Of a stretch of DNA of 64,000 nucleotides, positions 10,177 through 48,277 are shown in pieces. This DNA comes from Minisyncoccia bacterium (GTDB lineage: Bacteria; Patescibacteriota; Minisyncoccia; Phycocordibacterales; UBA918): NCBI GenBank assembly GCA_041742075.1, contig JBGSJJ010000009.1, positions 12,895-76,894 of the forward strand, written 5' to 3'. The position numbers were made by a program, and so were the translations under genes. Below the pieces are notes generated by a model. The model did not search any database. It was not told the DNA's origin and saw nothing but the letters and a program-made list of their open reading frames with translations. The first letter of the stretch is position 1, and every line of letters begins with the position of its first letter.

Positions 10177-10489
10177 AAAGGCTGTTGCCAAAAAAGTAGC
10201 GAAGCCAAAAGCTGACTCTGCCAAAAAACTCATCCGAGCTAAAGAGAGTGAGTGTTTTTGGACTACAGATGGCCACATCCTGCGTGACTTATCTCAATTA
10301 GAGCAGGCACTGAAAGCTATGAACGCAAAAGTTTTTAGTCATCACGTACAGGCTGGTAAAAACGACTTTGCTGATTGGGTTGAGTATATCCTTGAGGATG
10401 TCTCTTGTGCCCAAGAACTGCGAAAAACTAAAACCTTAGCACAGACTCATAAAGTTGTTGTAAAGCATCTTAAGACCTACAAAATTTAA
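10079..10489 (+). CDS. Lys/Ala-rich histone-H1-like protein with C-terminal globular domain (or frameshifted C-terminal extension of GH57)
   Basis: KPVKKVAAKKSVVVKKPAVAKVAKKAVAKKVAKPKADSAKK repeats then a conserved-looking 85-aa domain; overlaps the GH57 3' end in a different frame within A-homopolymer runs; start uncertain (10013 or 10079). Confidence 0.4.
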   Translation: MPTQKIQVEKPVKKVAAKKSVVVKKPAVAKVAKKAVAKKVAKPKADSAKKLIRAKESECFWTTDGHILRDLSQLEQALKAMNAKVFSHHVQAGKNDFADWVEYILEDVSCAQELRKTKTLAQTHKVVVKHLKTYKI

Positions 10490-10494
10490 TTTGT

Positions 10495-34388: not shown

Positions 34389-35126
34389 CTAATTTGAAGC
34401 GTTTTCAGCAAGATATGACTCAAGTTGAGTCTCGTCAACGGGTGTATCTGGGTGGTGTTGGTTGTAGATTGAAACTACGTTCTGAACAGTTTCGGGAGTA
34501 CAAACACGGTTTTCTGGTGAAAGCGTCGCTAGTACAAGGTCAAACACTTCGTTGCCACAACTATTTTTGCGAATTAAGTAATTTACACCAGCACTTGACC
34601 ACCCGTCTCTCGGTCCATTGTTTGGCAGTGATTCATTATTACGTTCCGGACGGCCATTAGTAGGGGTTGAAAGAAAACGCCAGTCACGAAACCATATACC
34701 TTTCGTGAGCGATCCTACAGAGCCGTGCGCCACTTTGGTGTTTAATACGTTTAAGTAATTGCTAAATCTTGTTGTTTCGTCTTTTAGGTCCCCATCAGTC
34801 ACACGAATATGTGTTCCGTGTTTATACAACTTAAAGTCGTCAGCGTCACTTTCAATACTGGGCTCATTGTCGTCAGTAATGGACACGCCAAGTGTTTTGA
34901 AAAAGTTTATTCTCAAGCTCTCTATTGAAGTTCTACTAGAGATATCAATCTTACACTCAACAAACTGAGACGCTGCCGCTAAGAGACTTTCCTGCAAGTT
35001 CGGATTTCCCTGAGAAAGTTCATACGACTTACGAAGGAGTGAGAACAGTTCCGCCTCAGTTTTTATCTCAAATAGTGGCTCTGACTCCTGCTCACTTTCA
35101 TGTGCGTTAGGTGGAAATTGCTCCAT
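34389..35126 (-). CDS. hypothetical protein (245 aa)
   Basis: starts MEQFPPNAHESEQE 7 nt downstream of the murA stop; the long upstream extension in the ORF track is out-of-frame overlap with murA. Confidence 0.45.
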   Translation of the reverse strand: MEQFPPNAHESEQESEPLFEIKTEAELFSLLRKSYELSQGNPNLQESLLAAASQFVECKIDISSRTSIESLRINFFKTLGVSITDDNEPSIESDADDFKLYKHGTHIRVTDGDLKDETTRFSNYLNVLNTKVAHGSVGSLTKGIWFRDWRFLSTPTNGRPERNNESLPNNGPRDGWSSAGVNYLIRKNSCGNEVFDLVLATLSPENRVCTPETVQNVVSIYNQHHPDTPVDETQLESYLAENASN

Positions 35127-35133
35127 ATTTTTT

Positions 35134-36636
35134 TTAAAACTCTTCAATGTACGACACGTCGGCACCAAGACTATTGAGGCGCTCAACGAGTTTTTCGTAA
35201 CCGCGGTTAATACTGTAGATGTTGCGCAGTACCGAGCGCCCACTGGCACCAAGCATAGCAATAAGAAGGATGGTGGCTGGGCGGAGAGCCGGCGGACAGA
35301 TAAGTTCAGTTGGGCGGAGTTTGGTCGGGCCGTTGATGTAAATACGGTGCGGGTCAGCGAGCACCGTGTCAGCACCGAGTTTGTCGAGCTCTGTGAAGTA
35401 GATGGCGCGCTTCTCATAGACCCAGTCGTGAATGAGTGTTTGTCCGGTTGACTGGGTGGCAATTACGGCAAAGAAGGGAAGATTGTCTATATTGAGTCCT
35501 GGGTAGGGGCGCGCGTAGACCTTTTCATGGAGCGCCATGAGCTTCGATGGTTTGGTAGTTATGTCGACTAAGCGAGTCATACCGTTGTGGCTCAAGTACG
35601 GCTTACTCTTAGTGTATTTAAAGCCCATTTTTTCAAGCTTGAGGAGTTCGAGTTCAAGGAAATCAATCGGACAGCGAGTAATGGTAATCGCTGACTGAGT
35701 AACGATAGCGGTCGCCAAGAAGAACATACTATCGGTCGGGTCTTCAGACAGGGTGTAGGTAATAGTTTCATGTATCTGCTTTACACCAGTTACGGTCAGG
35801 GTGGTCGTACCAACCCCTTCGATTTTTACACCACAGGCAATTAAAAATGCACAGACTTCCTGCACCATGTAGTTGGCTGAAGCGTACTTAATGACGGTGG
35901 TTGATGGCGTCAGAGCGGCAGCAAAGAGGGCGTTTTCTGTTACGGTGTCGCCGGACTCGTAGAGAATAATCTCCGTTGGTTTTTTAGGTACATGCTTCAC
36001 CACAAAGGCATCGTCAGTAGTTTTAATATCTACCCCAAAGTGTTCCAGCGCAAAAAAGTGTGGTTGGACAGTTCGACTACCAAGCTTGCATCCGCCTGAC
36101 TGAGGAAGAGAAAAAGTGGCGAGCTTATGCATAAGGGGACCGATGAACATGACGATACTTCTGGTCTTCCTGGCTGCTTCGACGTCAATCGCTTTGAGAT
36201 TGAATTTCTTTGGCGGAGTGAGGTGTACGTCTTTGTCCTTCCACTCAATTTTCATACCGATACTCTCGAGTACCTCAATAATGCGGTGCACTTCTTCTAT
36301 GCGGGGCATCTGTTTTAAAATAGTCGTTCCTTCATTTAAAAGGGAAGCGCAGAGGAGGCCGACAGCGCCATTTTTGGAAGTGTTGGTTTCGATAGTGCCT
36401 GTCAGTTTTTTGCCACCCTCAATTGCGATGTTGACCGAACCCGGTTGGGCTGACACGATGTTGCGCTTTAAAGCGGTACTCACTTTACGAAGTAGGTCAG
36501 TTGAAACATTTTGCTTGCCTGACTCGATGCGCGCCACGGCGCTTTGAGTACTTTTGATAAGTAGAGCGAGTTCCTTCTGTGTTAGCCCAACATCTTCCCG
36601 AATCTGCGCAATTCTTGCTCCGATGTGTGTTTGCAT
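35134..36636 (-). CDS. murA: UDP-N-acetylglucosamine 1-carboxyvinyltransferase fused to an N-terminal XRE-family HTH domain
   Basis: residues ~1-60 HTH (GLTQKELALLIKSTQSAVARIESGKQ); remainder is MurA/EPSP-synthase fold (GGKKLTGTIETNTSKNGAVGLLCASLL, C-terminal RGYEKLVERLNSLGADV). Confidence 0.75.
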   Translation of the reverse strand: MQTHIGARIAQIREDVGLTQKELALLIKSTQSAVARIESGKQNVSTDLLRKVSTALKRNIVSAQPGSVNIAIEGGKKLTGTIETNTSKNGAVGLLCASLLNEGTTILKQMPRIEEVHRIIEVLESIGMKIEWKDKDVHLTPPKKFNLKAIDVEAARKTRSIVMFIGPLMHKLATFSLPQSGGCKLGSRTVQPHFFALEHFGVDIKTTDDAFVVKHVPKKPTEIILYESGDTVTENALFAAALTPSTTVIKYASANYMVQEVCAFLIACGVKIEGVGTTTLTVTGVKQIHETITYTLSEDPTDSMFFLATAIVTQSAITITRCPIDFLELELLKLEKMGFKYTKSKPYLSHNGMTRLVDITTKPSKLMALHEKVYARPYPGLNIDNLPFFAVIATQSTGQTLIHDWVYEKRAIYFTELDKLGADTVLADPHRIYINGPTKLRPTELICPPALRPATILLIAMLGASGRSVLRNIYSINRGYEKLVERLNSLGADVSYIEEF

Positions 36637-36649
36637 ATACACAACATGA

Positions 36650-36748: not shown

Positions 36749-37762
36749 ATGTTTAATCGATTTACTCCAAAGATCGGTATTGATCTCGGCACCACCACAG
36801 TCCTCGTGTATATACCCGGACAGGGAATTGTTCTCAATGAACCATCAGTCGTGGCAATTTCAAGCGATAACAAAGTGTTGGCCGTCGGTAGTGAAGCAAA
36901 ACGAATGATTGGGCGAACACCGGAAAACATCCGTGCCTATCGACCGATGAAAGACGGCGTGATTGCCGACTATCGGGTGACTGAAGCCATGCTTCGCTAT
37001 TTTCTGCGGAAGGCACTCGGGAAATACCAACTCTTCAGACCTGAAGTGATGATTTCTGTGCCAGCTGGCGTGACCTCAACCGAAAAGCGGGCGGTGGTTG
37101 AAGCAGCGGCGAACGCCGGAGCAAAAAACACCTACGTGGTTAAGGAGCCGATTCTAGCAGCGATTGGCGCCGGGATACCTATATATGAAGCGCAGGGACA
37201 TATGATTGTCGACATAGGAGGTGGAACTATCGACGTGGCAGTAATTGCGCTCGGGGGCATTGTGGCTGCCAACTCCGTGAAGTGTGCCGGCAACCGCATA
37301 GACTCGGCTATCATTGACTATGTTAAGAAAAGTAAAAATCTTTCAATAGGTGAGAAAACCGCCGAAGAAGTAAAAATTCAAATCGGTTCAGCGCTTCCCC
37401 TGGAGGAAGAGCTGGTCATGACTATTAAGGGACGCGATGTTGTCTCTGGTTTGCCCCGAACAACTGAAATTAAAACGAACGAAATCGTGCGCGCTATCTC
37501 AAAAGAACTCCGTGACATGATTCGCGCTATTAAGGACGTGTTTCAAAATACGCCACCTGAGCTGTCTTCAGACATTATTGATGGCGGGATTATTATGACC
37601 GGCGGTACTTCACAATTAAGAAACTTTCCTGAACTAATTCGGCGTCGAACGGGAGTAAAAGCAGTGGTGGCAGACCAAGCACTTTTCTGTGTGGTGAAGG
37701 GGACGGGGATTGCGCTGGAACACCTAGACACCTACAAGCGCTCCATCTTAGCAAAGCGATAA
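36749..37762 (+). CDS. mreB: rod shape-determining actin-like protein MreB (paralog 1, isolated)
   Basis: IGIDLGTTTVLVY phosphate-1 motif, DIGGGT phosphate-2, full-length actin fold. Confidence 0.85.
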   Translation: MFNRFTPKIGIDLGTTTVLVYIPGQGIVLNEPSVVAISSDNKVLAVGSEAKRMIGRTPENIRAYRPMKDGVIADYRVTEAMLRYFLRKALGKYQLFRPEVMISVPAGVTSTEKRAVVEAAANAGAKNTYVVKEPILAAIGAGIPIYEAQGHMIVDIGGGTIDVAVIALGGIVAANSVKCAGNRIDSAIIDYVKKSKNLSIGEKTAEEVKIQIGSALPLEEELVMTIKGRDVVSGLPRTTEIKTNEIVRAISKELRDMIRAIKDVFQNTPPELSSDIIDGGIIMTGGTSQLRNFPELIRRRTGVKAVVADQALFCVVKGTGIALEHLDTYKRSILAKR

Positions 37763-38027
37763 TTCTCGGAAATTACTTTGTCGTGCCGCTAATTTTTTCA
37801 GTCACCGTATATGAAATACGGCTTCTTCTAAAATTAACTGCTCTTCGCGTACTTCCTCGAGAATTATCGCTTTGCACCTGATTACATCAAATTGGACAGT
37901 TTTTGAATACGTCTTTGTTCAAAATCACCGTTTGGGAATTTGCCTAATACTTTATTTTGTAATACAGGAAAGTCTTGTCCACCCATGAGGTGACGTGAGA
38001 AGTGCCAGAGCAACATATAATAGATGT

Positions 38028-40802
38028 ATGGCTGAAGGTATCCCAAAAAGATTCTCGTCCCCCGAGGAAGAGATTGCGTATTTGCGTGAGCAGATAGCGA
38101 CGCGCGAGCGTGAGTTGTTTAACCGTTCGGGAGAGACAGACAGGACTGACCACGAAACCGTGGCCAAGGCTGAACTCCATGAGTACGGTACGTTTACCCC
38201 GAACACGGTACTTGAAAAAGACCACCAGCTCAAACCTGACGAGCTCGCTCGGCGGGTCGAGCAGGTTGACTCAGCGAGAGAGCCGGTAGAAGAAATTGTG
38301 CAGATAGCGATAGAAAGGGGTGTTCACAATGCTCTCACGGTACTTGAAAAAACTAAGAACGCCTTCATGACTGACGAAGTACACCGTCGCTTGATTGAGC
38401 ATGTAAAGTCTGGCGCGACCGTTCAGAACTTAAAAGAAGGTGTCCCGCCGTGGCAGGTACTACATATGACGTTGTTTGAAGTGTCACTACCTGAAGTAAA
38501 CGAGCAAAAAGGTAAGTCGTACCAGCTGTCTGAGCTCGTTAGCATGATGGAACAGTTTTATGCTGGTATGCAGAATGTGGGTCAGTATGAAACCAGCACC
38601 CACTACGCGATAGAAATTGCCGTAGCTGATAAGAGTGACGACATTGTTTTTTATGTCGCGGTACCGAGTCAGTATGTCGACCTGTTTCAAAAACATCTTC
38701 TTTCACTGTATCCGCACGCGCATTTGACGGAGCAGATTCATGACTACAACATCTTTGTGGCCGGTGGAAGTTCTTTGGTTGCCAGGGCAGAGCTCAAAAA
38801 GCACCACATCTATCCGATTGCGACGAAAGAATCATTTGAATCTGATCCGCTCGCAGTTATCTTAAACGCCTTTTCAAAAATTGAACGTGAAGGTGGGGGA
38901 GCCGCTTTGCAGTTTGTTATTCGTCGTGCTCCCCAAAAATACACCGGGGTGTATGAAGGGATTATTAAACGCGTTCGTGGCGGTATGAAAGTGTCTGACG
39001 CTATAGCGAGAAGTTCGCTTGGTGGTGAGGTGGTGGCCAGTTTAAAAGAGCTCGTGTTTTCAAATTCTGCTAAGAAAAAAGAAGAAGCACTACCAACCCG
39101 AGACCATATTGACACAGAAGCACTCGAACTGTTTGCAGAGAAAATTAAGCACCCAGTCTTGGACGTTAATATACGTATCGCCGTGTCTTCAACGACTGAG
39201 TCTCGCTCAAAACAAATTTTATCTGAAATCGAATCAACGTTTAATCAGTTTGAACGTACCCAAAGTAATCGATTCGTGTTTTCAGTCTTGAAGGGGAGTG
39301 CACTTACACAAGCCGTGAAAGCATTTTCCTTCAGGGATTTTGTACCCGCGACCGCATTACCGCTGACGCTCCGCGAGCTTGCCACCGTGCTTCACTTTCC
39401 GGGTGCGGGTATCGATAGCTCACCACAGTTTAAGCAATCAAGAGCTAAGACGGCGTCAGCGCCAACCAATACACCAACTACTGGTACGCTCCTTGGTTTT
39501 AACGACCATCGAGGAGAAAAGAAGGATATCTACATCAGTGAGCTCGATCGCATGCGCCATTTCTACATCATTGGTCAGACTGGTACGGGTAAGACGACTC
39601 TGATGAAGAACATGATTGTGCAAGACATCGAGGCTGGTCACGGTGTTTGCTTTATTGACCCTCACGGTACCGACATAGAAGATATCGTGAGTTGTATTCC
39701 TAAGGAACGTGAAAAGGATTTAATTTATTTTGACCCGTCACAATTTGACTCAGTGGTTGGACTCAACATGCTTGAGTATGACGAAAAGAAGCCTGAACAG
39801 AAGACGTTTGTGGTAAACGAACTGTTTTCTATTTTCCAAAAACTCTATGGGGCAAACCCAGAGTCGATGGGCCCGATGTTTGAGCAGTACTTCCGCAACG
39901 CGACGTTGCTTGTGATGGAAGACCCAAGTAGCGGAAATACCCTCATGGATATTAGTCGGGTAATGGCAGACAGTAAGTACCGGCGGATGAAACTAGAGAA
40001 AGCGAAAAATCCAGTCGTGGTGCAGTTTTGGCGTGAGATAGCCACCAAGGCAGGTGGAGAAGCGTCACTTGAAAACATTGTGCCGTACATCGTTTCAAAG
40101 TTCGATGTCTTCACCGCCAACGACTACATGCGACCAATCATTGGTCAACAAAAATCTTCGTTTAACTTCAGGCAGATTATGGATGAGCGGAAGATACTTC
40201 TCGTGAACCTTTCTAAAGGTCGCTTAGGGGAAATTAATGCCAACCTTATCGGTATGATTGTGGTGGGAAAACTTTTGATGGCGGCGCTGTCGCGAGTTGA
40301 TGACGCGAGTCGAAGTTTCCCACCGTTTTACTTACACATGGACGAGTTCCAAAACGTTTCGACGAACTCTATCTCAGCGATTCTGTCTGAAGCGCGCAAG
40401 TATAAGCTTGGCCTGACTATTGCTCACCAATTTATCGCTCAACTGGATGAAAAAATAAAAGAATCGGTGTTTGGAAACGTGGGGTCAATGGCGGCGTTTC
40501 GAGTTGGTCCAGAAGATGCACAGTTTCTTGAGCATCAGTACCACCCAACCTTCACCGCTGCCGACCTCATGAATGTACCCAACCAAACTGCGTATATGCG
40601 GATACTCGCGAGCGGTATTCCGACTAAACCATTTAGTCTCAGCACCTTTGCCCCGCCAGTGACTGACCCAACTCGTGTTCAAGCGCTTATTGCTCAAAGC
40701 AATAGCCGTTACGGACGACCACGAGACGAGATTGAAGCAGAGATTCATAAACGTTATCAAAAAGAAACAGTGCCAACCGAGAATCCGTTTGCTAAGATGT
40801 AA
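38028..40802 (+). CDS. soluble FtsK/HerA/VirD4(TraD/TraG)-superfamily P-loop ATPase with novel ~460-aa N-terminal region
   Basis: Walker A IIGQTGTGKTT followed by CFIDPHG (HerA/T4CP-like), Walker B YLHMDEFQN, sensor TIAHQFIAQL; no TM helices; ATG has no RBS but TATAAT 7 nt upstream (possible leaderless). Confidence 0.7.
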   Translation: MAEGIPKRFSSPEEEIAYLREQIATRERELFNRSGETDRTDHETVAKAELHEYGTFTPNTVLEKDHQLKPDELARRVEQVDSAREPVEEIVQIAIERGVHNALTVLEKTKNAFMTDEVHRRLIEHVKSGATVQNLKEGVPPWQVLHMTLFEVSLPEVNEQKGKSYQLSELVSMMEQFYAGMQNVGQYETSTHYAIEIAVADKSDDIVFYVAVPSQYVDLFQKHLLSLYPHAHLTEQIHDYNIFVAGGSSLVARAELKKHHIYPIATKESFESDPLAVILNAFSKIEREGGGAALQFVIRRAPQKYTGVYEGIIKRVRGGMKVSDAIARSSLGGEVVASLKELVFSNSAKKKEEALPTRDHIDTEALELFAEKIKHPVLDVNIRIAVSSTTESRSKQILSEIESTFNQFERTQSNRFVFSVLKGSALTQAVKAFSFRDFVPATALPLTLRELATVLHFPGAGIDSSPQFKQSRAKTASAPTNTPTTGTLLGFNDHRGEKKDIYISELDRMRHFYIIGQTGTGKTTLMKNMIVQDIEAGHGVCFIDPHGTDIEDIVSCIPKEREKDLIYFDPSQFDSVVGLNMLEYDEKKPEQKTFVVNELFSIFQKLYGANPESMGPMFEQYFRNATLLVMEDPSSGNTLMDISRVMADSKYRRMKLEKAKNPVVVQFWREIATKAGGEASLENIVPYIVSKFDVFTANDYMRPIIGQQKSSFNFRQIMDERKILLVNLSKGRLGEINANLIGMIVVGKLLMAALSRVDDASRSFPPFYLHMDEFQNVSTNSISAILSEARKYKLGLTIAHQFIAQLDEKIKESVFGNVGSMAAFRVGPEDAQFLEHQYHPTFTAADLMNVPNQTAYMRILASGIPTKPFSLSTFAPPVTDPTRVQALIAQSNSRYGRPRDEIEAEIHKRYQKETVPTENPFAKM

Positions 40803-40808
40803 GTACGT

Positions 40809-43800
40809 ATGAAAGAAGAGTGGGGATTAGAAAGTAGAGGGAAAAAATACAACAGACCACAGCGTGGTCGTGTTCGTGATGTAGTTGTACCACCTCCGCT
40901 ACCGAGAGAGGTAGTTAAAGAAAAACCGTCAGCTGATAGTGTTTGGAAAGCGGAGGTTGAGAAGCTGCTAAACAAGACCGAAGTAAATACTGAACAACCA
41001 GAAGCAGTAGGAGAAATACCCGGAGAGGAAGTTTTGCAAGAAGTGACAGAGGAGCATGGTGCTGCCGGTGGTACTGCAGAACTGTCACTGGTAGATCATG
41101 AGGAACGGAAAGAATTAGCTCGAAAAGCCGTGCGCATGTTTAATGAGGTTCGGTTACTTAAAGACTCAATTACGACTCATGAAAGTGGACAGTCGTCACC
41201 TAACCTCGAGATCGATGGCTATGGTGACTTTCAAAATGCATATGCATTACTTAAAGATCAACTTAAACTAGTAGAATGGTCAAAAAATAAAGACGAGGAA
41301 ATTACAGCTGAAGTAGTTAGTGAAATTGAACGTCTTTATGGCGTATTATCAGAAGCTCATACACGAGTCGAACAGGCTGCTCTAGAAAGAGAAATCGAAC
41401 TTGCCTATGAAGATGAAGAAGCGCCGACTGCTCAAATAGAAGCATCAACCTCAGAAATCAACCAGCCAAGCAATCAAAATGAACTAATTACTGGTAAAGA
41501 ACCAGACAAGCATAAGGTGGCGGCTGTAGAATTTACTGTAAAGGAACCTAGCATAAGAGTCGGAAAATTCTACCAAATGCTTATAAATAATAATCTGACT
41601 GAAGTTCGTGTTATAGCGAAAGCAAATGAAGCAAACGGGAGCGCATTTATAGTAAGCCATGAAGTAGATGGTCAAGCATTACTCAGGGAATCTGTGAAAG
41701 CTGATGACCTGATTGAGATCAAAGAAAAATCTACTCCTAGTAACAGATTTGGTAAGCGGTATTCTACACTCGCCAGGACTAGCGACAGCAATCTTGTTTT
41801 AGGAGAGTCTTCTTTAGCTGAAGCTGACCTAGGTGAAGCTATTTCAAGTGAACAAGAAATGGCTACTCTTAAATCTGAAGCAGAAACTACTTCTGGTAAA
41901 AAAGCACATCAAATTGGCCAAAAGTACTTACTACTAATTGGGAATCAGCCTATAGAAGTAACTATAGTTGATGTAGACGAAAATGGTCTAGCTCAAGTCA
42001 CTTACGATAAAGACGGAAAGCACTTTTCAAAGTTTTTTGTCAAACCCGAACAACTTTCAGAAATTGCTCCTCAAACTACGGCTGAACTTAATACGTTTGT
42101 CAGTGAAAAATTGAAAAACGATGAAGGATCTTTTATTAACCAAGTAAGCGAAGTCTTAGAAGAAAATCCTGAACTGACTGAAGAAGTATACAATGCAAAA
42201 GTATTACCACTATTTAAGGAGAGACTTTTGAGTGCTGGCTACACAAGTGACGAGATTCAGAATTTATTCGCCTTAAATTTTCAGTTAGAACAGAAAGCGC
42301 ATAGTAACTTTAATAAGGAAACGGGCACGTTAAAAACTGAAGACGTCTTGAATCGTGCACGCAGTATTGAGGTTAGTATTTTAAATAAAAAACCGAAACA
42401 GGAAGAAAACCCACCTGAACTTCCTGTAAACAACGGTTTCTCAGCTGTGTCTCAAGTAACTACTCCACCCTCTTTTATAAAAGATAACCGAAATCTTAAT
42501 AAACGTGACTCAGTTAGATTTGAGAAATGGCAAAATAAAGAATGGACACCAGGTGAGTATCTGGATTTAGACGAACAAGCGGAACTGTCGAAACAAACGG
42601 ACCCACGAAATATAAGAATAATAACTGAAAATATTTCCGAGGATGAAGTATTTTTGAAAAAAATGCGCGGTGAGTACGAGTCCTTGGTAGCAGAAGCTGA
42701 TAGGCTCGGTCGGAATCCGCTGACACCATCAACACTCAACATTGCGATTATGTCGCTTGATAGAGCAATCAGAGTGTACGAAGAACGACTTGCAAACGAA
42801 GGCCAGTCTGATAATGAAATTACGCAAATGGAATCTGACCGCCTACGCGAAGAACTGATTGAATTGCGAACGCTTATTTGTGAACCTAAGGCACACATTG
42901 AAGGAGAAGTAGAGGCTACCCAGACTGGAACAAACACTGACGAAAATCCACACGTTGAAACAGAAGAGTCCTTAGCTACAGAGCCACCAACACCGGAAGA
43001 TACCGAGCCACCGCGCGAATCACCAGCAGAAGACGAAAAAAGTGCCGAGGCGTTTCTAAAAGGTGAAGTCTTAGGTAAAGAAGTGTCTCTAGCTGAAGTA
43101 GCACTAGGGAAAATGTTTTATGTACCGCGTAAGGCTGGTGGATATACACTTTGTCAGGTTGTAGACATAGATCAAACCTCTGGTGATGTCCAGCTAGCAG
43201 GGCATGACGAAGCTGGAAAATTTACTAAATGGGTACACCACAGTGTACTCTCAGTTGAAGAGCCCTTTAAAGATGGAGAAGTAAAGCCAGATGAACAGCA
43301 GGTAAGAGAAGCTAGGGAGATAGAAGAAGCAGAAGTCGTAGAATCTTTGTCCACTGATACACAGATACCAGAAACAACGAAAGAAAACTATCGACCTAAA
43401 TCAGCTGAACGAATAGCACTTGATGAAAAGCATAAAGAATTTTCTTCCGCTAAGAAAGCGTATTATAGTCAGGAGTTTCTCGCGCAAAAAAAAGAGTTAG
43501 CGCAACTTGAAGCTGAGCTAAAAAATCCAGCTCACTCAGACCGAGCCAGAGATGAAATGCGTGGCCGACGCGATGCGCTCTTTACTGCAGCGGAGCAAAT
43601 TGCCTACCGCTATAAAGAAGCCAAGCAACCGTACGCCGAAGCACTCCAAGAGTATTTGACTAAGAAAGAAACAAAGGCTGGTACTTCACTCACGCCTGAA
43701 CAAGCGAAAGCGATGGTAGGCGGGCGCTTCTTTGGTAAAACCAAAGCCGAGCGGTATACAGGAACTGGTGTCATAGGAAGAGACGGCTTGGAAAAACAAG

Positions 43801-45767
43801 TGGGTTTACTAGACAGCGAGCTACAAAATCCAATTCATACTGAAATGGAAAAAGAAGCGTTGCGGGTTAAACGTCTGGAGCTTGTAGATAGAATTAATAA
43901 AATTCCTGCAGAACACACCGCTGATGTTTCATACAAGTCCTATCGAGAGCAAGAGCTCGCGCTTCGCGAAGCGGTGCTTTCGTTTGAGCAAAAAGGTACT
44001 TTTGTACGTATGAAGGAAAAGTTCGATAAGCTAAATCCAAAAGCAAAAATTGCAGTTGGGGGAGCCATCTTAGGAGCTTCAGTTTGGAATGTGGGTCTTA
44101 TACCGGTTTTAGCTGGTTTGACAGCTGGTGTAGGAGTTCGCTTAGGAGTAAAAAAAGGTGGCTACGCCACGATAGATGCACTCCGGAATCAAGGTAGGCA
44201 AAATAAACTCAGTGCTTTTGACGCCAGTAATTTAGTGCAATTTGAGTCGGCACTCGATAAGGGTGAAGAACGAGAAAAAACAGCGAAGAAGGCTGTCAGT
44301 GGCGTTGCATTCGTGAGTGGAGTAGCAGCTGGTGCTACGGCTGGTCTTGGTGCCAGAGGGGTTGGTGTGGACGAGGTGTTTCAAAATTTAGTGGACAGTG
44401 TGACGCAAAAATCAGGTACTGGCTCAGGAACTTTTGTTCCTAGTGCTGATCAAGCGCCATCGATAACTCAAAGTGAAGTCCCTCTTACATACGAAAAAGA
44501 TCCGATTGTAATTACCATCGAACCTGGTCAGTCCGGGTACGTCGAATTAGATGGAGTAGTAGCAACCCCAGATGCGTCAGCGACTAATGTTGCTGGTGAG
44601 GGTGCTGCAATCGGGGGAGACGAAGTGGTGAAGGAGGTTCCTGTCGCGGATTTGCAGGTAGAAGTGTCTGAAGCACCAGCTCGCAAAGAAATGACGGGTA
44701 CAGAACCTCAAGCTTTCGAAAAAGGAAATATTGCACCGGTAGAAGAGGTTGTAAAGAAACCGCTTGAGTTTAGCAGTGCGGAACGCTACCAGACACATTT
44801 TCACACTGTCCCGAACCCTGACAAAATTGACCAAAATGCTCCAGCCTTTGAAAAAGCAAGTACTGTGTCTGACATTCTCTTTGAGCGCTGGAAAGTTGGT
44901 CAGTTTGACCATCTTGGGTGGGTGCCACAGCATGGGGAAGTGAACGAGACGGAATTTTTGCAAGTGATGAATGAAGCAATTCATACTGCCTCTGCAGACA
45001 CTCTCAGAGCAATGATGATTGATAGTGGAGACATTGATGTTGTGTATCCCGGTGAAAGGCTCGACATGGTACCAATTCTTTATCAAATGTTTCCACCAGA
45101 AGTCAGTAGTACCGTTAGTCAAGCTTCTGAGGCAGTCTCTTTGTCGCCTGAACCAGAAGTTACTCCTACGGTTGAAGCCGCACCTCTCTCTTCTGTGAAC
45201 GAAGAGTTAACAGTTCAGTCTACTCTAGTACCGGTAGAAGTAGATGTGTCACCTAATGATCTTGAATCAGTTGTTTCTTACGCGAATCGGTATGATTCGC
45301 TCGAGGCAAACCAGCTTGCAGAAATTATTACCGAAGCAAAAGAGCGGGTTATGGAAAATATGAGTGAGTCAGACACGATGGCGCTCTCGGCTGAAGAAAT
45401 TAATGAGCGGATTAAAACTGAAGTTGATGTGCTTGCCACCACGGAGCTTATAGCTAAAACACTTAACGCCAGTGGTCAGTCTGGTGAGGGAGTGGTCGAG
45501 TTTATGAATGTCGCTTATCAAGATATCAAAAACTTTCCTCCTGAAAAAGCCGTTGGAATTGACTTTGAGACTGCTAAGTTTCTCTTTAATTACGCTCAGT
45601 CTCAATTAGATTCACTCAGTCAAGAAGTTAAGAGTCAAATAGCTTCTCCAAGCTTAAGCAATCTAGTCGAAGCGCTGGTGCGAGATGGCCGACTAGAAGT
45701 ATCAGGTGACCAACATACGCTCGTACAGCCAGGAAGTCGAAATCACGTGCTAAACCTCAGAAACTAA
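40809..45767 (+). CDS. giant (1652 aa) acidic coiled-coil protein with central Gly-rich hydrophobic segment
   Basis: 7-nt gap after the ATPase gene; Glu/Lys-rich low complexity with long heptad-like stretches; residues ~1075-1200 contain AVGGAILGASVWNVGLIPVLAGLTAGVGV and VAFVSGVAAGATAGLGARGVG. Confidence 0.6.
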   Translation: MKEEWGLESRGKKYNRPQRGRVRDVVVPPPLPREVVKEKPSADSVWKAEVEKLLNKTEVNTEQPEAVGEIPGEEVLQEVTEEHGAAGGTAELSLVDHEERKELARKAVRMFNEVRLLKDSITTHESGQSSPNLEIDGYGDFQNAYALLKDQLKLVEWSKNKDEEITAEVVSEIERLYGVLSEAHTRVEQAALEREIELAYEDEEAPTAQIEASTSEINQPSNQNELITGKEPDKHKVAAVEFTVKEPSIRVGKFYQMLINNNLTEVRVIAKANEANGSAFIVSHEVDGQALLRESVKADDLIEIKEKSTPSNRFGKRYSTLARTSDSNLVLGESSLAEADLGEAISSEQEMATLKSEAETTSGKKAHQIGQKYLLLIGNQPIEVTIVDVDENGLAQVTYDKDGKHFSKFFVKPEQLSEIAPQTTAELNTFVSEKLKNDEGSFINQVSEVLEENPELTEEVYNAKVLPLFKERLLSAGYTSDEIQNLFALNFQLEQKAHSNFNKETGTLKTEDVLNRARSIEVSILNKKPKQEENPPELPVNNGFSAVSQVTTPPSFIKDNRNLNKRDSVRFEKWQNKEWTPGEYLDLDEQAELSKQTDPRNIRIITENISEDEVFLKKMRGEYESLVAEADRLGRNPLTPSTLNIAIMSLDRAIRVYEERLANEGQSDNEITQMESDRLREELIELRTLICEPKAHIEGEVEATQTGTNTDENPHVETEESLATEPPTPEDTEPPRESPAEDEKSAEAFLKGEVLGKEVSLAEVALGKMFYVPRKAGGYTLCQVVDIDQTSGDVQLAGHDEAGKFTKWVHHSVLSVEEPFKDGEVKPDEQQVREAREIEEAEVVESLSTDTQIPETTKENYRPKSAERIALDEKHKEFSSAKKAYYSQEFLAQKKELAQLEAELKNPAHSDRARDEMRGRRDALFTAAEQIAYRYKEAKQPYAEALQEYLTKKETKAGTSLTPEQAKAMVGGRFFGKTKAERYTGTGVIGRDGLEKQVGLLDSELQNPIHTEMEKEALRVKRLELVDRINKIPAEHTADVSYKSYREQELALREAVLSFEQKGTFVRMKEKFDKLNPKAKIAVGGAILGASVWNVGLIPVLAGLTAGVGVRLGVKKGGYATIDALRNQGRQNKLSAFDASNLVQFESALDKGEEREKTAKKAVSGVAFVSGVAAGATAGLGARGVGVDEVFQNLVDSVTQKSGTGSGTFVPSADQAPSITQSEVPLTYEKDPIVITIEPGQSGYVELDGVVATPDASATNVAGEGAAIGGDEVVKEVPVADLQVEVSEAPARKEMTGTEPQAFEKGNIAPVEEVVKKPLEFSSAERYQTHFHTVPNPDKIDQNAPAFEKASTVSDILFERWKVGQFDHLGWVPQHGEVNETEFLQVMNEAIHTASADTLRAMMIDSGDIDVVYPGERLDMVPILYQMFPPEVSSTVSQASEAVSLSPEPEVTPTVEAAPLSSVNEELTVQSTLVPVEVDVSPNDLESVVSYANRYDSLEANQLAEIITEAKERVMENMSESDTMALSAEEINERIKTEVDVLATTELIAKTLNASGQSGEGVVEFMNVAYQDIKNFPPEKAVGIDFETAKFLFNYAQSQLDSLSQEVKSQIASPSLSNLVEALVRDGRLEVSGDQHTLVQPGSRNHVLNLRN

Positions 45768-45769
45768 CT

Positions 45770-46120
45770 ATGGAACCACAACAACTTACAACTGATGTTG
45801 GAAAACTAATTGGCCTTGAGAGCTTAAACGAATTTGAGCAGGCTGAGTTTTTAGCGCAAATCGGAGAACTAATTATCGAGTCGGCTTTACTGCGACTGAC
45901 CGAAACACTGACTCCTGATCAACAGATGGCTATCAACCACTACCTCGAAACCGAACCAACCCCAGAAGTGTTTATGAGTTATTTGGTTACTCATCATGCA
46001 TCGTTTCAAACTATTCTTGACGAAGAAATAATTGCGTTCAAAGAAGAGTGTATCGCTGTGATGGGACGTGGTGCACTTAAAGAAATTTCGCAACCCATGC
46101 ACGCGACTGTGTTAAAGTAA
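45770..46120 (+). CDS. small acidic hypothetical protein (116 aa)
   Basis: starts 3 nt after the giant ORF stop; helical, no known motif. Confidence 0.45.
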   Translation: MEPQQLTTDVGKLIGLESLNEFEQAEFLAQIGELIIESALLRLTETLTPDQQMAINHYLETEPTPEVFMSYLVTHHASFQTILDEEIIAFKEECIAVMGRGALKEISQPMHATVLK

Positions 46121-46157
46121 TACACAGGCAACTTAAAAATTTGTAACAAAATTTTTA

Positions 46158-47657
46158 TTGCTATCGTGTATACTAATAGTAATTATGGGAGGTGATCTAG
46201 GTTCTTCAACTGTCGGTTCTTTTGCACCGCATACAGCGGGTACGGTTTTTGATATTACCAAAGAAATCGACGCTCTGGCTGTCCTTAAAGCTATTCACCG
46301 GAGTCAGATAGACGTCGGCACAAAAAATACCCTCCGCGATGCGGTGTTTGACTATCGGCAAAACCTTGATCAAGCCACCCTCACCAATGCCTGTGAGTTA
46401 TTTGCTCAAGTTGGAATTATTGTTATTGGGTGTACGCCGGATTCAGTACCAGCGACTGAAACAGTATTACCCGCTACACAAACGCCTTCAGCAAGTGAAG
46501 AACGTCCACCCGTTTCAAAGCTAAGAATCGGTCGCCCGAGGCCAACTTTTGGGGTGAGTACAACTCCAGTTGTGGCAACTCAAAAACCAGTCGAGCGAGC
46601 CAGTACTGAACCTATGACTCCGACTGCTTCTTATGAAGCAAGTGCACCCGTTGCCCCTCAGGTAGCAGTACCTAGAGAGAACGAAGCAATGGTTGCAGAA
46701 GCCGTGATAGAGGGACCTGCGGAACCAGTTGTGACAGCAGAACCGACAGCTCAGCCCATTAGTGTTCCTACTACGTCTACGGCACTCCCAGTTAAGGCGG
46801 TTGATCGTATAAACGAAATTAAGAAACTTGTTAACGAAAAAATCGGCAATCCGGTGAATTTGATTGAGGCGCACAATGAACTCGGTCGCGAGTATATGAA
46901 CGCACTTCTTGAGGCAATGAAAAAAAGTAACGGTGGACAAGCCTCTGAACTGGCTGCTGCTATGGAGAGACTTGAAAAGGCTTTCGCGCTCGTAGAAGCG
47001 ACCCTCGATAAAAGTGTTCATGTTGAGACGACACCAGTGGTACACGTTCCGATTGAGCCAGTCGTAACGCCAGAGCCGGTAGTTGAAGAACCTCCAGTTT
47101 CAGTTCAGGTTGAGACAGTGCAAGAAACCGTTACACCGCTTAGTCCGCCACCAGAACCTAAAGAAGAGGTACCCGTGTCTACTCCTGTAGTTGCGCCGGT
47201 AATCACGTCGGTCGCTAAGACTAAACAGGTAGAAGAGCTTATGCATAAGCAGATGATTGAATCATCAGAGAAAGCTGAGATTGCTGAGCGTATCGCTGAA
47301 GAGAAGATGGACCCGGTTATGGTGTCTGAAGTTACCAGTGGCCTCCGTCAACTTTTATCAGAGTGGAGCTTGTTTAAAAGTAGTGGTATTTTTGGTACCG
47401 GTCCAAGTGGTATTGACCACGCTCTCTATAAGAAGCTGAGCTCACTTCCTATGCAAGCGGTGATTGCTGGTCGGTTTGAAGGTTCAACACCACAGATACG
47501 ACAAAGTATCTCTGACTATATGAATGGGTGGCGCTATGAAGAGGGAGTGGTATTTGATTACGGAGAATCGTTTGAGCACTACTTACGTCGCGTGATTCGC
47601 CACATTCTTGATAAAAAAGCTCAGCAGGCTAACCCTCTTTTGACTAAGAAACTCTAG
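46158..47657 (+). CDS. Pro/Val/Glu/Thr-rich protein with conserved C-terminal globular domain (hypothetical)
   Basis: 499 aa; long PxxP/PVV low-complexity linker then a ~150-aa C-terminal domain (GIFGTGPSGIDHALYKKL...). Confidence 0.45.
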   Translation: MLSCILIVIMGGDLGSSTVGSFAPHTAGTVFDITKEIDALAVLKAIHRSQIDVGTKNTLRDAVFDYRQNLDQATLTNACELFAQVGIIVIGCTPDSVPATETVLPATQTPSASEERPPVSKLRIGRPRPTFGVSTTPVVATQKPVERASTEPMTPTASYEASAPVAPQVAVPRENEAMVAEAVIEGPAEPVVTAEPTAQPISVPTTSTALPVKAVDRINEIKKLVNEKIGNPVNLIEAHNELGREYMNALLEAMKKSNGGQASELAAAMERLEKAFALVEATLDKSVHVETTPVVHVPIEPVVTPEPVVEEPPVSVQVETVQETVTPLSPPPEPKEEVPVSTPVVAPVITSVAKTKQVEELMHKQMIESSEKAEIAERIAEEKMDPVMVSEVTSGLRQLLSEWSLFKSSGIFGTGPSGIDHALYKKLSSLPMQAVIAGRFEGSTPQIRQSISDYMNGWRYEEGVVFDYGESFEHYLRRVIRHILDKKAQQANPLLTKKL

Positions 47658-48277
47658 TGTATGATAGTGGTGCTATGCATCATGCCATTTTGTATATTGG
47701 AAACAGTTTAGAATCGTCTGGTTTACCGAGCGTGTATCACACCGCAAGTCCGAGTGTGACTCATCTCATGCAAGATTCTTTTACAATTGCCGATGCGCGT
47801 GCACTTAAGGAGCTTATTTACCAGCGACCTATAGAAGGGAGTACAGCTGTTTTTGTTATCAAAAGTCACACTATCGCTTCTGAAGCTCAGCAGGCACTGC
47901 TAAAAATCCTCGAGGAACCACCGGTACATGCACAGTTGTTTATTGTGGTTCCGCGACTGGATTCGCTTTTGCCGACGGTGCGCTCACGCCTGCTGTACGA
48001 GCAGGTATCAGTAGTAAGCGAAGAAGCAAATCCAGTTTTCGAAACCTTTAAAGCATTGTCACTTAAAGAAAGAATAGAAACGATTGCCGAGAAAACAAAA
48101 GCAAAAGATCTAAAGTGGATAGAAGCAATTCTTGCTGGAGCGGAAAGTCTCGTGAGGAGTGATCAATTGCGCTATAAAGAGCTTGCACATGAAATTCTAT
48201 TAGTTCGTTCGTACATCGCCAGTCGTGGTGCTTCAAAAAAGATGCTCCTTGAGTCACTCGCCTGTAGTCTGCCTTAG
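47657..48277 (+). CDS. holB: miniaturised DNA polymerase III delta' subunit-like protein
   Basis: MHHAILYIG (HHAxL), ALLKILEEPP, TVRSRL (SRC motif) but no P-loop/zinc module; 206 aa. Confidence 0.55.
   Translation: MYDSGAMHHAILYIGNSLESSGLPSVYHTASPSVTHLMQDSFTIADARALKELIYQRPIEGSTAVFVIKSHTIASEAQQALLKILEEPPVHAQLFIVVPRLDSLLPTVRSRLLYEQVSVVSEEANPVFETFKALSLKERIETIAEKTKAKDLKWIEAILAGAESLVRSDQLRYKELAHEILLVRSYIASRGASKKMLLESLACSLP

Follow-up and report, generated by a model that had tools for sequence, protein, structure and literature searches.

A conserved DUF8128 ATPase of Patescibacteria and its fast-evolving neighbours: a possible stand-alone membrane-motor module

Introduction

What is the role of an ATPase of the FtsK/HerA/VirB4/VirD4 superfamily that is encoded among the housekeeping genes of a bacterial chromosome, directly in front of a giant acidic protein? 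Such a block is found in a stretch of 64,000 nucleotides from a Minisyncoccia bacterium (hereafter, the window). The hosts of this gene, the Paceibacteria, are ultra-small and belong to the candidate phyla radiation; the bacterium of the window is itself a member of the Patescibacteria, of the Kaiserbacteria/Paceibacteria type. So far, the literature has remarked only on "orphan T4CP homologues" in Patescibacteria. In 2025, Quinonero-Coronel et al. reported thousands of VirD4-like genes of Patescibacteria that lie away from virB4 and are "possibly exapted"; of 5,713 such genes in 2,918 genomes, 148 are near virB4 (PMC12102498). The ATPase of the window almost certainly belongs to this "orphan" class. 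Analyses of domains and of conserved neighbours are absent from that paper, and what is added here is the VirB4-like domain predicted for the N-terminus, the partners (DUF5663 and the giant protein), and the synteny with mreB1 and p499.

The Locus and Its Genes

Four open reading frames on the + strand (37995-40802, 40809-45767, 45770-46120, and 46158-47657) are separated by 6, 2, and 37 nt and run on into a holB-like gene, frr, and rseP, in agreement with an earlier note on this DNA, which had also placed an mreB paralogue immediately upstream. Because homologues of the ATPase are about 924 aa long, its start is probably ATG 38028, and because the database copy of p499 has 490 aa, that protein probably starts at ATG 46185, which makes the third spacer 64 nt. 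The genes are as follows.

36749..37762, +: mreB1, an isolated MreB paralogue (Pfam MreB_Mbl, 1.2e-129)
38028..40802, +: DUF8128 ATPase, 924 aa, from ATG 38028 (mechanical ORF start, GTG 37995)
40809..45767, +: giant acidic protein, 1652 aa; belongs to the variable family of "big proteins" encoded after the ATPase
45770..46120, +: p116, small, acidic, and helical; a divergent DUF5663 member
46185..47657, +: p499 family protein, 490 aa, from ATG 46185
47657..48277, +: holB-like gene (DNA polymerase III delta' type), 206 aa (Pfam DNA_pol3_delta2, 6e-14; NCBIfam holB models)

The stop codon of p499 and the GTG of the holB-like gene overlap by 1 nt. To judge from the spacing, the four genes may be co-transcribed; a scan for promoters and terminators gave no signal above the shuffled expectation in either direction. 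The genes of the region all point the same way and are closely spaced, even the clearly unrelated frr, rseP, and an aaRS gene. From its synteny, mreB1 could be a member of the module, whereas the holB-like gene, though conserved downstream of the block, is probably outside it. No T4SS or relaxase genes were found within the 64-kb window.

Domains and Conservation of the ATPase

The ATPase can be divided as follows, with residues counted from ATG 38028.

38028..38447, +: N-terminal helical extension, aa 1-140, with a conserved "SPEEEIAYLREQIA" motif
38457..39422, +: DUF8128 core, aa ~144-465, alpha/beta, with a predicted fold like the VirB4 N-terminal domain
39495..40742, +: P-loop ATPase domain, aa ~490-905, VirD4/HerA-like
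39573-39596, +: Walker A, GQTGTGKT, aa 516-523
39651-39668, +: FIDPHG, aa 542-547
40332-40355, +: Walker B, LHMDEFQN, aa 769-776
40422-40445, +: AHQ motif, AHQFIAQL, aa 799-806

A database protein (P0001) is 100% identical to it over 924 aa and carries PF26449 (DUF8128). The description of the ATPase as novel was overstated, since the family is catalogued in Pfam, counts over 1100 close homologues as well as 844 clusters at the level of 50% identity, and falls in a class that has already been remarked upon (PMC12102498). Relatives are encoded at no fewer than 511 loci of species-representative genomes, and the NCBI name for homologues is [quoted passage not shown]. Across its clade, the ATPase is 65-80% identical over the full length, and the P-loop domain is nearly invariant among 40 homologues. 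The gene is chromosomal and strongly conserved in Patescibacteria of the Paceibacteria type.

The assignment to the superfamily holds: the motifs are in place, and the P-loop domain scores slightly above the Pfam cut-offs for DUF87, TrwB_AAD_bind, and T4SS-DNA_transf and slightly below that for TraG-D_C. Its best sequence families are SXT_TraD (4.7e-15), CD1115 VirD4-like (1e-8), and T4SS-DNA_transf. The NCBIfam TraD and CD1115 VirD4-like models score it far below their cut-offs (TraD, 55 vs 366 bits). Judged by these scores and by the lack of T4SS and relaxase genes around it, the ATPase is not a canonical conjugative coupling protein, in line with the earlier note. The first ~460 aa, said to match nothing, are now modelled as a VirB4-type N-terminal domain: the top 11 Foldseek matches of the ATPase model are all TrwK, and because RecA-type ATPases are absent among the matches, the similarity is specific to the N-terminal domain of VirB4. 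In the model, then, a VirB4-type N-terminal domain (DUF8128) and a VirD4/HerA-like P-loop domain are joined in one protein of 924 aa.

DUF8128 proteins of ~800 aa can be aligned only from aa ~144 of the query onward; these proteins, and fusions of 1694 and 1773 aa, have at their start a TM helix and then basic residues. In the ~920-aa type, the soluble 140-aa extension takes the place of this helix (helices H12-127 of the AF2 model lie within the extension). The N-terminus of the ATPase has no hydrophobic segment, which bears out the absence of a membrane anchor, and its sole hydrophobic stretch (aa ~736-754) is inside the P-loop domain. The fusions carry in cis a Pro/Ala/Glu-rich tail of ~800 aa, comparable to the acidic proteins that are partners in trans.

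The Neighbouring Proteins

The giant protein is acidic (pI 4.8; 291 D+E vs 186 K+R) and has two Gly/Ala-rich hydrophobic stretches (aa 1079-1116 and 1162-1187, from hydropathy), much as the earlier note had read it. Because it also contains three beta-type repeats of ~55 aa, it is not simply a coiled coil.

44061..44351, +: conserved membrane module, aa 1085-1181 (hydropathy and iterated HMM)
41544..43253, +: region of the three ~55-aa beta-type repeats
41544-41711, +: repeat 1, aa 246-301
41913-42059, +: repeat 2, aa 369-417
43089-43253, +: repeat 3, aa 761-815

The membrane module consists of a Gly/Ala-rich hydrophobic hairpin, a polar linker of ~45 aa, and a second Gly/Ala-rich hydrophobic stretch. 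The iterated HMM finds it in 13 of 33 big proteins, including those of the 50%-identity clade (loci L049, L052, and L053), and a C-terminal domain of ~100 aa is present in 15 of the 33; only these two parts are widely conserved. An HMM built from the three repeats finds one copy in locus L002 and none elsewhere. A signal peptide is absent from the giant protein, and searches of Pfam, NCBIfam, PHROG, and PADLOC gave no match to it. It evolves fast, and big proteins can barely be aligned even where the ATPases are 78% identical.

The p116 protein, acidic as had been stated (pI 4.4), falls below the Pfam threshold for DUF5663 when taken alone; a profile built from 23 orthologues recovers proteins of PF18908 (DUF5663) with E values of 1e-12 to 1e-19, and the orthologue in locus L092 is weakly flagged as DUF5663. 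It has no WXG100 match in Pfam. In p499, the predicted Pro/Val/Glu linkers and conserved C-terminal module were both found, together with two further conserved modules; the linkers are disordered and join these helical parts.

46245-46427, +: p499 helical module 1
46797-47015, +: p499 helical module 2
47211-47651, +: p499 helical module 3, C-terminal

Recurrence in Related Genomes

The block is syntenic in relatives, and the arrangement, which is found again in dozens of genomes, is not a matter of chance. In the clade of the window, the order is mreB1, ATPase, an acidic protein of 204-1847 aa, a DUF5663-like protein of ~100 aa, the p499 family, holB, frr, and rseP, and the order mreB1-ATPase-big-(DUF5663)-p499-holB is kept in about 45 loci. 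In these loci, mreB1 is 77-91% identical (tblastn) and lies directly upstream of the ATPase, an order that L092 shares. In all loci of this clade a holB-like gene follows the p499 homologue. The clade also has priA two genes upstream.

The trio of ATPase, big protein, and DUF5663 occurs in at least three unrelated flanking contexts. Besides that of the window, these are a RecJ/ComEC context (L049, L052, and L053; in loci of the L053 type, RecJ is upstream and an RNase H-like gene and ComEC are downstream) and an FKBP/TGT/UvrB context (L081 and L083-L086; UvrB, UvrA, and UvrC are near the ATPase in L081-L086). In the loci examined, DUF5663-like genes lie exclusively 2.4-5.5 kb downstream of the ATPase. 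A TM-anchored version of 799 aa is followed directly by dnaX and then by GIY-YIG, UDG, and ExoVII. No T4SS or relaxase genes occur across more than 90 related loci.

As a partner of the ATPase, the giant protein is not obligatory. In the clade of the window, the gene next after the ATPase differs in size by a factor of more than eight; several loci of this clade have only p499, with neither DUF5663 nor a giant that bears the hairpin; and in about 25 loci of a sister clade (~50% identity; map-ATPase-ndk context), neither the big protein nor DUF5663 adjoins the ATPase.

Comparison with Known Systems

VirB4 (e.g., TrwK of R388; PDB 7o42 and 8rtd) resembles the ATPase in having an alpha/beta N-terminal domain followed by an FtsK/HerA-superfamily P-loop domain, a length of about 800-900 aa, no TM helices of its own, and an expected docking on small membrane proteins. 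Unlike VirB4, the ATPase scores only 17.6 bits with TIGR00929 (cut-off, 643), has no CagE_TrbE_VirB match, carries the extra 140-aa helical extension, and has a P-loop domain nearer in sequence to the T4CPs; no VirB3, VirB6, or VirB8 genes are near it, and its context is chromosomal and housekeeping. The T4CPs (VirD4, TrwB, TraD, and TraG) provide the best P-loop matches (PF02534, PF10412, TIGR03743, and NF045973). However, the modelled N-terminal half has the VirB4-type fold and not the TM domain of T4CPs, the curated models stay far below their cut-offs, no relaxase or T4SS is nearby, and TrwB was matched in PDB searches at the P-loop level only. A T4CP without TM helices can be recruited by a partner, as TraJ of pIP501 is by TraI, and here too a TM-less ATPase adjoins a membrane protein.

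The Firmicute T7SSb (EssC, EsaA, and EsxA) likewise combines an FtsK/HerA motor, a variable membrane protein of ~1000 aa, and an acidic helical protein of ~100 aa, with fast-evolving partners. It is an organisational analogue only and is not homologous: in Pfam, FtsK_SpoIIIE is below cut-off and confined to the P-loop and p116 has no WXG100 match, and the motor of the window has one ATPase domain, not three. In the DNA-import systems of Helicobacter (ComB4) and crenarchaea (Ced), a VirB4-superfamily ATPase works outside conjugation with small TM-hairpin membrane proteins, and ComEC is two genes away from the ATPase in L049, L052, and L053. However, CedD was matched at the P-loop level only (21.6 bits; cut-off, 600), and no partner family of the ComB or Ced systems turned up.

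A Possible Membrane Motor and Its Alternatives

We tentatively propose to read the block as a membrane-motor module that works on its own, descends from the ATPases of type IV secretion, and has dedicated partners and a polypeptide cargo. The ATPase would oligomerise into a ring on the cytoplasmic side of the membrane and, in TM-less lineages such as that of the window, would be docked in trans, perhaps on the Gly/Ala-rich hairpin module of the giant protein, by analogy with VirB4 on VirB3/VirB8. The DUF5663 protein may serve as substrate or chaperone, or as a small adaptor. Energy from ATP hydrolysis would drive the translocation or assembly of polypeptides at the envelope, most likely of those portions of p499 and the giant protein that are acidic and evolve fast, so that a surface or envelope structure would be built or exported. 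Of this proposal, the part with the better support is that a VirB4-like membrane motor has been put to new use together with partners of its own, and the choice of protein over DNA as cargo is its weakest step; the evidence is compatible with both a protein or envelope role and a DNA-handling role. The loci of the window's own clade without hairpin giant and DUF5663, the limited reach of the hairpin HMM, and the lack of a signal peptide in the giant protein speak against the proposal, and the partners may be dispensable for the core function because the sister-clade loci lack them beside the ATPase.

The ATPase might instead be a DNA translocase that pumps or hands over DNA at the membrane, for uptake (ComFA/ComB4/Ced-like, beside ComEC) or for segregation or replication-coupled handling (FtsK-like), with the giant protein, DUF5663, and p499 as anchors, regulators, or unrelated proteins. 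We consider this rather unlikely, even though the P-loop domain is closest to DNA-transfer coupling proteins and VirB4 homologues serve in DNA uptake in Helicobacter (ComB4) and in DNA import in archaea (CedB). Genes of DNA metabolism recur in independent contexts (holB/priA; dnaX; RecJ/RNase H-like/ComEC; UvrABC), which counts against the motor module, and the contrast between an extremely conserved motor and partners that hardly align fits DNA, as a universal cargo, better than a fast-evolving protein. On the other hand, information-processing genes abound in these small genomes, and a DNA gene within three neighbours in four of five contexts has, on a rough estimate, a p of about 0.08. The N-terminal domain is of the VirB4 type, and VirB4 is an assembly or dislocation ATPase, not a DNA pump. 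The conserved trio partners would be left without a role, and Pfam detects no DNA-binding domain except the P-loop-level TrwB_AAD_bind match. In Southlakia, deletion of comEC abolishes competence and leaves the cells viable (PMC12857230), so that DNA uptake alone would not explain such strong conservation of the ATPase.

It is improbable that the ATPase is the T4CP of a chromosomal Patescibacteria T4SS encoded elsewhere, acting in trans, with the downstream genes as possible substrates or effectors. The NCBI name and the Pfam T4CP matches would suit this, t4cp is often far from virB4 in the genomes surveyed in PMC12102498, and large acidic proteins adjoining a T4CP could be effectors. However, the lack of a TM domain, the modelled VirB4 fold, the low scores with curated T4CP models, and the absence of T4SS genes from the window all argue against it; T4CP-like genes occur in 2,918 genomes vs virB4 in 2,417, with few near virB4 (PMC12102498), and in Southlakia the t4cp homologue is reported to be non-essential, the T4SS essential. 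Least probable of all is that the genes have no common function, the ATPase being an independent housekeeping gene beside a hot spot of fast-evolving disordered "filler" genes and the operon-like appearance a result of genome compactness. The packing of the whole region, the lack of promoter or terminator signals, and downstream genes that vary widely in size, barely align, or are missing altogether from many loci agree with this idea. However, the ATPase-big-DUF5663 order persists across flanking contexts, DUF5663-like genes are confined to their position, big proteins of different clades share the hairpin module and C-terminal domain, and there are proteins in which a TM anchor, the ATPase, and an acidic tail are fused in cis.

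The arrangement of a DUF8128 core and an ATPase domain is also found in phages. In phrog_5156, it matches aa 193-911 of the ATPase with an E value of 7.5e-80, and the "VirD4-like" proteins of Bacillus phage G (gp156) and SPO1-like phages share the same architecture at ~22% identity (tblastn). All of these proteins lack the N-terminal extension, belong to a phage context, and are very distant.

Layout and genomic setting of the block

The four-gene block is best described as a real, conserved module in which an ATPase of the T4SS superfamily has been put to a new use. Its genes are co-directional and tightly packed, as the earlier note had described, with spacers of 6, 2, and 37 nt:

37995-40802, + strand: ATPase ORF (homologue-supported start ATG 38028, 924 aa)
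40809-45767, + strand: giant protein ORF (1652 aa)
45770-46120, + strand: p116 ORF
46158-47657, + strand: p499 ORF (homologue-supported start ATG 46185, 490 aa)

The lengths of the homologues indicate that the true ATPase and p499 products are slightly shorter than their ORFs. The p499 stop overlaps the GTG of the downstream holB-like gene by 1 nt. No tRNA or Rfam matches were found in the window, and promoter- and terminator-like sites showed no excess over the shuffled expectation in a sequence scan. Upstream of the block lie the minus-strand genes fmt, def, priA, and one for an HTH-fused MurA, followed by mreB1; downstream, the order is the holB-like gene, frr, rseP, a class II aaRS gene, mreB2, mreC, and PBP2. 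The remaining large ORFs of the 64-kb window encode transporters, glycogen enzymes, aaRSs, a PBP, and a Mur ligase, with no T4SS genes among them. The two MreB paralogues (mreB1, 36749-37762; mreB2, 51570-52646) share 42-45% identity, and mreB2 sits with mreC and PBP2 in a canonical elongasome. The other copy, mreB1, is indeed isolated, and it is found directly upstream of the ATPase gene across the window's clade.

A prophage or mobile-element origin was considered and rejected, because the phage relatives of the ATPase are only ~22% identical, the GC content is flat over the block region, and the flanking housekeeping genes keep their order in related genomes. These phage relatives, from Bacillus phage G (JN638751.1 gp156), SPO1-like Bacillus phages, and phrog_5156, have the architecture of a DUF8128 core followed by the ATPase domain.

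Family membership and conservation of the ATPase

The ATPase belongs to the DUF8128 family (PF26449) and has a DUF87/T4CP-like P-loop domain. This assignment was made through a 100%-identical database protein (P0001), and it is the precomputed Pfam annotation of that protein and of nearly all of the 120 homologues listed. The motifs quoted in the earlier note, GQTGTGKT, FIDPHG, LHMDEFQN, and AHQFIAQL, are all present. More than 1100 related proteins were found at E <= 1e-5, the best 120 of which show 65-80% full-length identity. The highest-ranking homologues derive from MAGs of Candidatus Kaiserbacteria, Nomurabacteria, and Paceibacterota, which places the window in a Paceibacteria-type member of the Patescibacteria (CPR). 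In a scan of one genome per species, at least 511 loci encode a relative, and a search with just aa 1-479 brings up 844 clusters (50%-identity clusters). The C-terminal half is almost invariant in a 40-sequence alignment. Across the clade, the ATPase is 65-80% identical, above frr or rseP in the same loci, and this conservation, among the best in the clade, argues for an important function.

The Pfam matches are marginal and all fall within aa ~510-840 (DUF87, TrwB_AAD_bind, T4SS-DNA_transf, and TraG-D_C). Two T4CP models of Pfam are narrowly passed (PF02534, 24.5 bits, cut-off 20.1; PF10412, 25.3 bits, cut-off 20.5), the NCBIfam T4CP models score far under their cut-offs (55 vs 366, 34 vs 250, and 32 vs 648), and a PDB profile search found TrwB at no better than E 0.01, across 40 residues. 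Neither Pfam nor NCBIfam assigns the protein confidently to the canonical conjugative T4CPs, in keeping with the earlier note, which could place the block in no described system. With the VirB4 model TIGR00929, the score is 17.6 bits (cut-off 643.1), confined to the P-loop, and the VirB4 family of Pfam (PF03135, CagE_TrbE_VirB) is absent from the matches. The protein does not qualify as a HerA helicase, which would have a HAS-barrel N-terminal domain and a NurA partner and pass the HerA models: the model NF040819 gives 13 bits against a cut-off of 970, the DUF87 match is limited to aa 518-636, and the HerA structure 4d2i in the PDB is reached at E 0.18. Nor does it qualify as FtsK/SpoIIIE, with that family's motor domain, N-terminal TM segments, and gamma domain, as the model PF01580 gives 20.4 bits (cut-off 24) over 33 residues at the P-loop; the Ced models of NCBIfam are also far under cut-off, and the combination typical of type VII secretion, a multi-domain FtsK-like ATPase with a WXG100 substrate, was not found. 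PDB searches with the single sequence and with a 40-sequence profile returned P-loop-level matches only. By these comparisons, the P-loop domain is nearer in sequence to the coupling proteins than to VirB4. Because both its sequence and its gene neighbourhood set the protein apart from VirB4 as well as from the T4CPs, it is filed under DUF8128 only.

A role in defence was likewise rejected, since only a weak PADLOC mad8 match (2e-12) and P-loop HerA matches were obtained, with no defence partners.

A VirB4-type N-terminal half

According to the earlier note, the first ~460 aa of the ATPase matched nothing recognizable. PDB sequence searches do stop at the P-loop, but the predicted fold of this part resembles VirB4. 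The AF2 model of aa 1-479 (pLDDT 79, pTM 0.73) shows a soluble N-terminal half, with a helical extension (aa ~1-140) followed by an alpha/beta core. A Foldseek search with this model placed 11 TrwK chains on top (E 8e-6 to 9e-4), with nothing else below 1e-3. No other RecA-type ATPases were among the matches, so the resemblance is to the VirB4-specific N-terminal domain; the model matches VirB4 and not HerA. On the strength of the model, the protein has a VirB4 architecture, with an N-terminal domain of the VirB4-type fold.

The N-terminal TM domain expected of a T4CP is missing, as the earlier note had observed: the first 500 residues contain no hydrophobic segment, and the maximum 19-residue hydropathy of the protein (1.82, at aa 736) lies inside the ATPase domain. 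Other DUF8128 proteins, of ~790-815 aa, can be aligned only from query residue ~144. At their start they carry a TM helix and then basic residues; in place of this helix, the ~905-935-aa type found in the window has the soluble helical extension. From this difference, we infer that DUF8128 is a family that works at the membrane and that the window's lineage lacks an anchor of its own. Two database homologues, P0438 (L090 10001-15085) and P0459, are fusions of 1694 and 1773 aa, in which an N-terminal TM helix, DUF8128, and the ATPase domain are followed by a ~800-aa Pro/Ala/Glu-rich tail ending in a conserved KGE[VI][YF]VDE.GNV motif.

The partner proteins

The giant protein, p116, and p499 have no usable matches in Pfam, NCBIfam, PADLOC, or PHROGs. 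The giant protein is acidic (pI 4.8) and can barely be aligned even with its counterpart in L002, a related locus whose ATPase is 78% identical. Its central Gly-rich hydrophobic hairpin, noted earlier from the sequence, corresponds to two hydrophobic stretches rich in Gly and Ala (aa 1079-1116 and 1162-1187). An iterated HMM recovered a ~100-aa module, consisting of a hydrophobic hairpin, a polar linker, and a second hydrophobic stretch, in 13 of the 33 variable acidic "big proteins" encoded after the ATPase, in both clades (aa 1085-1181 of the window's giant protein). A C-terminal domain of ~100 aa is common to 15 of the 33 and is undetectable in the giant protein. Self-BLAST of the giant protein revealed no repeats; with a hand-seeded HMM, three repeats of ~55 aa emerged, which are limited to the closest relatives. 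Pseudogenisation of the giant gene in the closest relative was checked and rejected.

The p116 family comprises acidic, helical proteins of ~100 aa. Even at E <= 1, p116 itself matches nothing in Pfam, including DUF5663. A profile of 23 orthologues picks up 41 proteins annotated as PF18908 (E 1e-12 to 1e-19), and the orthologue in L092 is weakly flagged as DUF5663; by these profile matches, p116 is probably a divergent DUF5663 member. The 759 homologues of p499 all lack a Pfam domain. The conserved C-terminal domain and linker reported for p499 were borne out as three conserved helical modules joined by disordered linkers, and a fold search was uninformative.

Gene order in related genomes

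We searched 80 related loci by tblastn with the window proteins, the window's clade being defined by an ATPase identity of >= 57%. In this clade, the order is priA, HTH-murA, mreB1, ATPase, a variable region, the p499 C-terminal module, holB, frr, rseP, aaRS, and mreB2, as confirmed by one Pfam-annotated locus (L092). The block order is thus kept, and the objection foreseen in the earlier note, that the four genes might be syntenic in no relative, falls away. The first gene after the ATPase starts -19 to +171 nt from its stop and encodes an acidic protein of 204-1847 aa with an E+D content of 10-23%. HMMs run over all loci detected DUF5663-like genes in the window, in L081-L086, and in 26 of the 80 loci. 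Each of these genes shares the strand of the ATPase and lies 2.4-5.5 kb past it, with one big ORF between. The p499 modules were detected in the window and in 38 loci, in every case in the holB context.

The trio of ATPase, big protein, and DUF5663-like protein also occurs in a second context (RecJ-ATPase-big-DUF5663-RNaseH-ComEC) and a third (ATPase-big-DUF5663-FKBP-TGT-UvrB). In ~25 loci of a ~50%-identity clade, the arrangement is map-ATPase-ndk, and the big protein and DUF5663 are absent. Searches of the window and of 90 related loci, with flanks of up to 10 kb, revealed no association with a relaxase or a T4SS, and no VirB3-, VirB6-, or VirB8-like Pfam families occur among the scanned window neighbours or L081-L092.

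Several individual loci deserve mention. In L049, L052, and L053 (e.g., L053 7957-19366), which form one subclade, RecJ is upstream of the trio, and downstream there are genes for an RNase H-like protein, ComEC (DUF4131 + Competence), and, separately, a metallo-beta-lactamase. In L073 (7955-9895), a protein of 646 aa that carries a prepilin N-terminal methylation motif is encoded directly upstream of the ATPase, after map, and L076 has an 862-aa protein without a Pfam match in the equivalent position. The distant L089 (492-4005) encodes a TM-anchored DUF8128 ATPase of 799 aa with 40% identity, followed directly by dnaX and then by GIY-YIG, UDG, an exo/endonuclease gene, and ExoVII; dnaX after the ATPase echoes holB after the window's block.

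A possible mechanism and its rivals

The analysis shows a conserved, chromosomal ATPase of VirB4 architecture with recurrent partners and no T4SS nearby. VirB4 docks via its N-terminal domain onto VirB3 and VirB8, as seen in the R388 structures. By analogy, the TM-less ATPase would dock as a ring on the hairpin module of the giant protein at the membrane, DUF5663 may serve as an adaptor or a substrate, and ATP hydrolysis would move a polypeptide at the envelope. We offer this scheme tentatively. A broader and more doubtful extension is that the module could be a hitherto undescribed, T4SS-independent envelope machine and a core trait of the Paceibacteria. In this view, the giant protein would form a channel or anchor of glycine-zipper-like type, on which a hexameric motor derived from VirB4 would dock, and DUF5663 would again be the adaptor or substrate. 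The machine would then either export or assemble acidic, hypervariable polypeptides of the surface, as a host-contact structure, or import DNA.

The main rival to this polypeptide-moving scheme is a role of the ATPase in DNA handling, to which holB and priA beside the window's block, dnaX directly behind a TM-anchored version, RecJ and ComEC in one context, UvrABC neighbours in another, and the extreme conservation of the motor all point; on balance, we consider it rather unlikely. That the ATPase is a coupling protein acting in trans for a distal T4SS is less probable again, given that its N-terminal domain is of VirB4 type, that it lacks a TM domain, and given the published gene counts and essentiality data (PMC12102498). 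Pure coincidence of the gene neighbourhood is the least credible reading, as the trio is conserved across contexts.

Relation to previous work

The earlier note called the ATPase novel, a description that is too strong for the gene class, which is known from the published counts of VirD4-like genes and from the DUF8128 (PF26449) catalogue. In 2,918 Patescibacteria genomes, 5,713 VirD4-like genes were counted, only 148 of them near virB4, and their exaptation was raised as a possibility (Quinonero-Coronel et al. 2025, PMC12102498). A 2025 review also counts VirD4-like components among the Patescibacteria T4SS genes. We found no literature on DUF8128, PF26449, or DUF5663, and the gene is absent from the main text of a Paceibacteria metatranscriptome paper. 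As far as our searches show, what is new within this literature is the VirB4-type N-terminal domain, the dichotomy of TM-anchored and TM-less DUF8128 forms, the conserved partners, and the family-specific mreB1/p499 synteny.

The VirB4 architecture, the lost anchor, and the two partners travelling with the ATPase, a DUF5663 protein and the hypervariable giant with its membrane module, make a defined, testable module of what had been a vague "orphan T4CP" and give a first structural and functional lead for DUF8128, DUF5663, and the unnamed p499 family. Patescibacteria make up a large part of bacterial diversity and live by attachment to other cells, and few of their conserved unknown genes have a proposed mechanism. 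Should the module prove to be a machine for export or for the envelope, it would be a candidate host-interaction apparatus of the Paceibacteria and would exemplify the evolution of a new system from T4SS parts; if that machine is T4SS-independent, it would represent a new class of secretion or uptake system with T4SS-descended parts. If the ATPase is instead a DNA motor, it bears on DNA uptake or segregation in nucleotide-auxotrophic cells.

Other observations

The MurA-like enzyme upstream of mreB1 (EPSP_synthase fold; 35134-36642, minus strand) carries an N-terminal XRE-type HTH_3 fusion; it is 72-87% conserved in relatives, and L092 has the same fusion. A 357-aa ORF without a Pfam match (34389-35462, minus strand) overlaps the 3' part of this gene and is probably spurious. 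The holB-like gene (47657-48277, 206 aa) matches the DNA_pol3_delta2 profile at positions 78-152 only, and its product therefore looks like a truncated delta'. A glycogen-/starch-type cluster at 7484-12468 encodes a GT4/GT5-like glycosyltransferase, GH57, and GH15. Many MAG records (L001, L003, L005, and others) bear the title "uncultured Candidatus Saccharibacteria", yet the proteins in them share 65-79% identity with those of Kaiserbacteria/Paceibacteria and have the same synteny, so this label looks generic rather than taxonomic.
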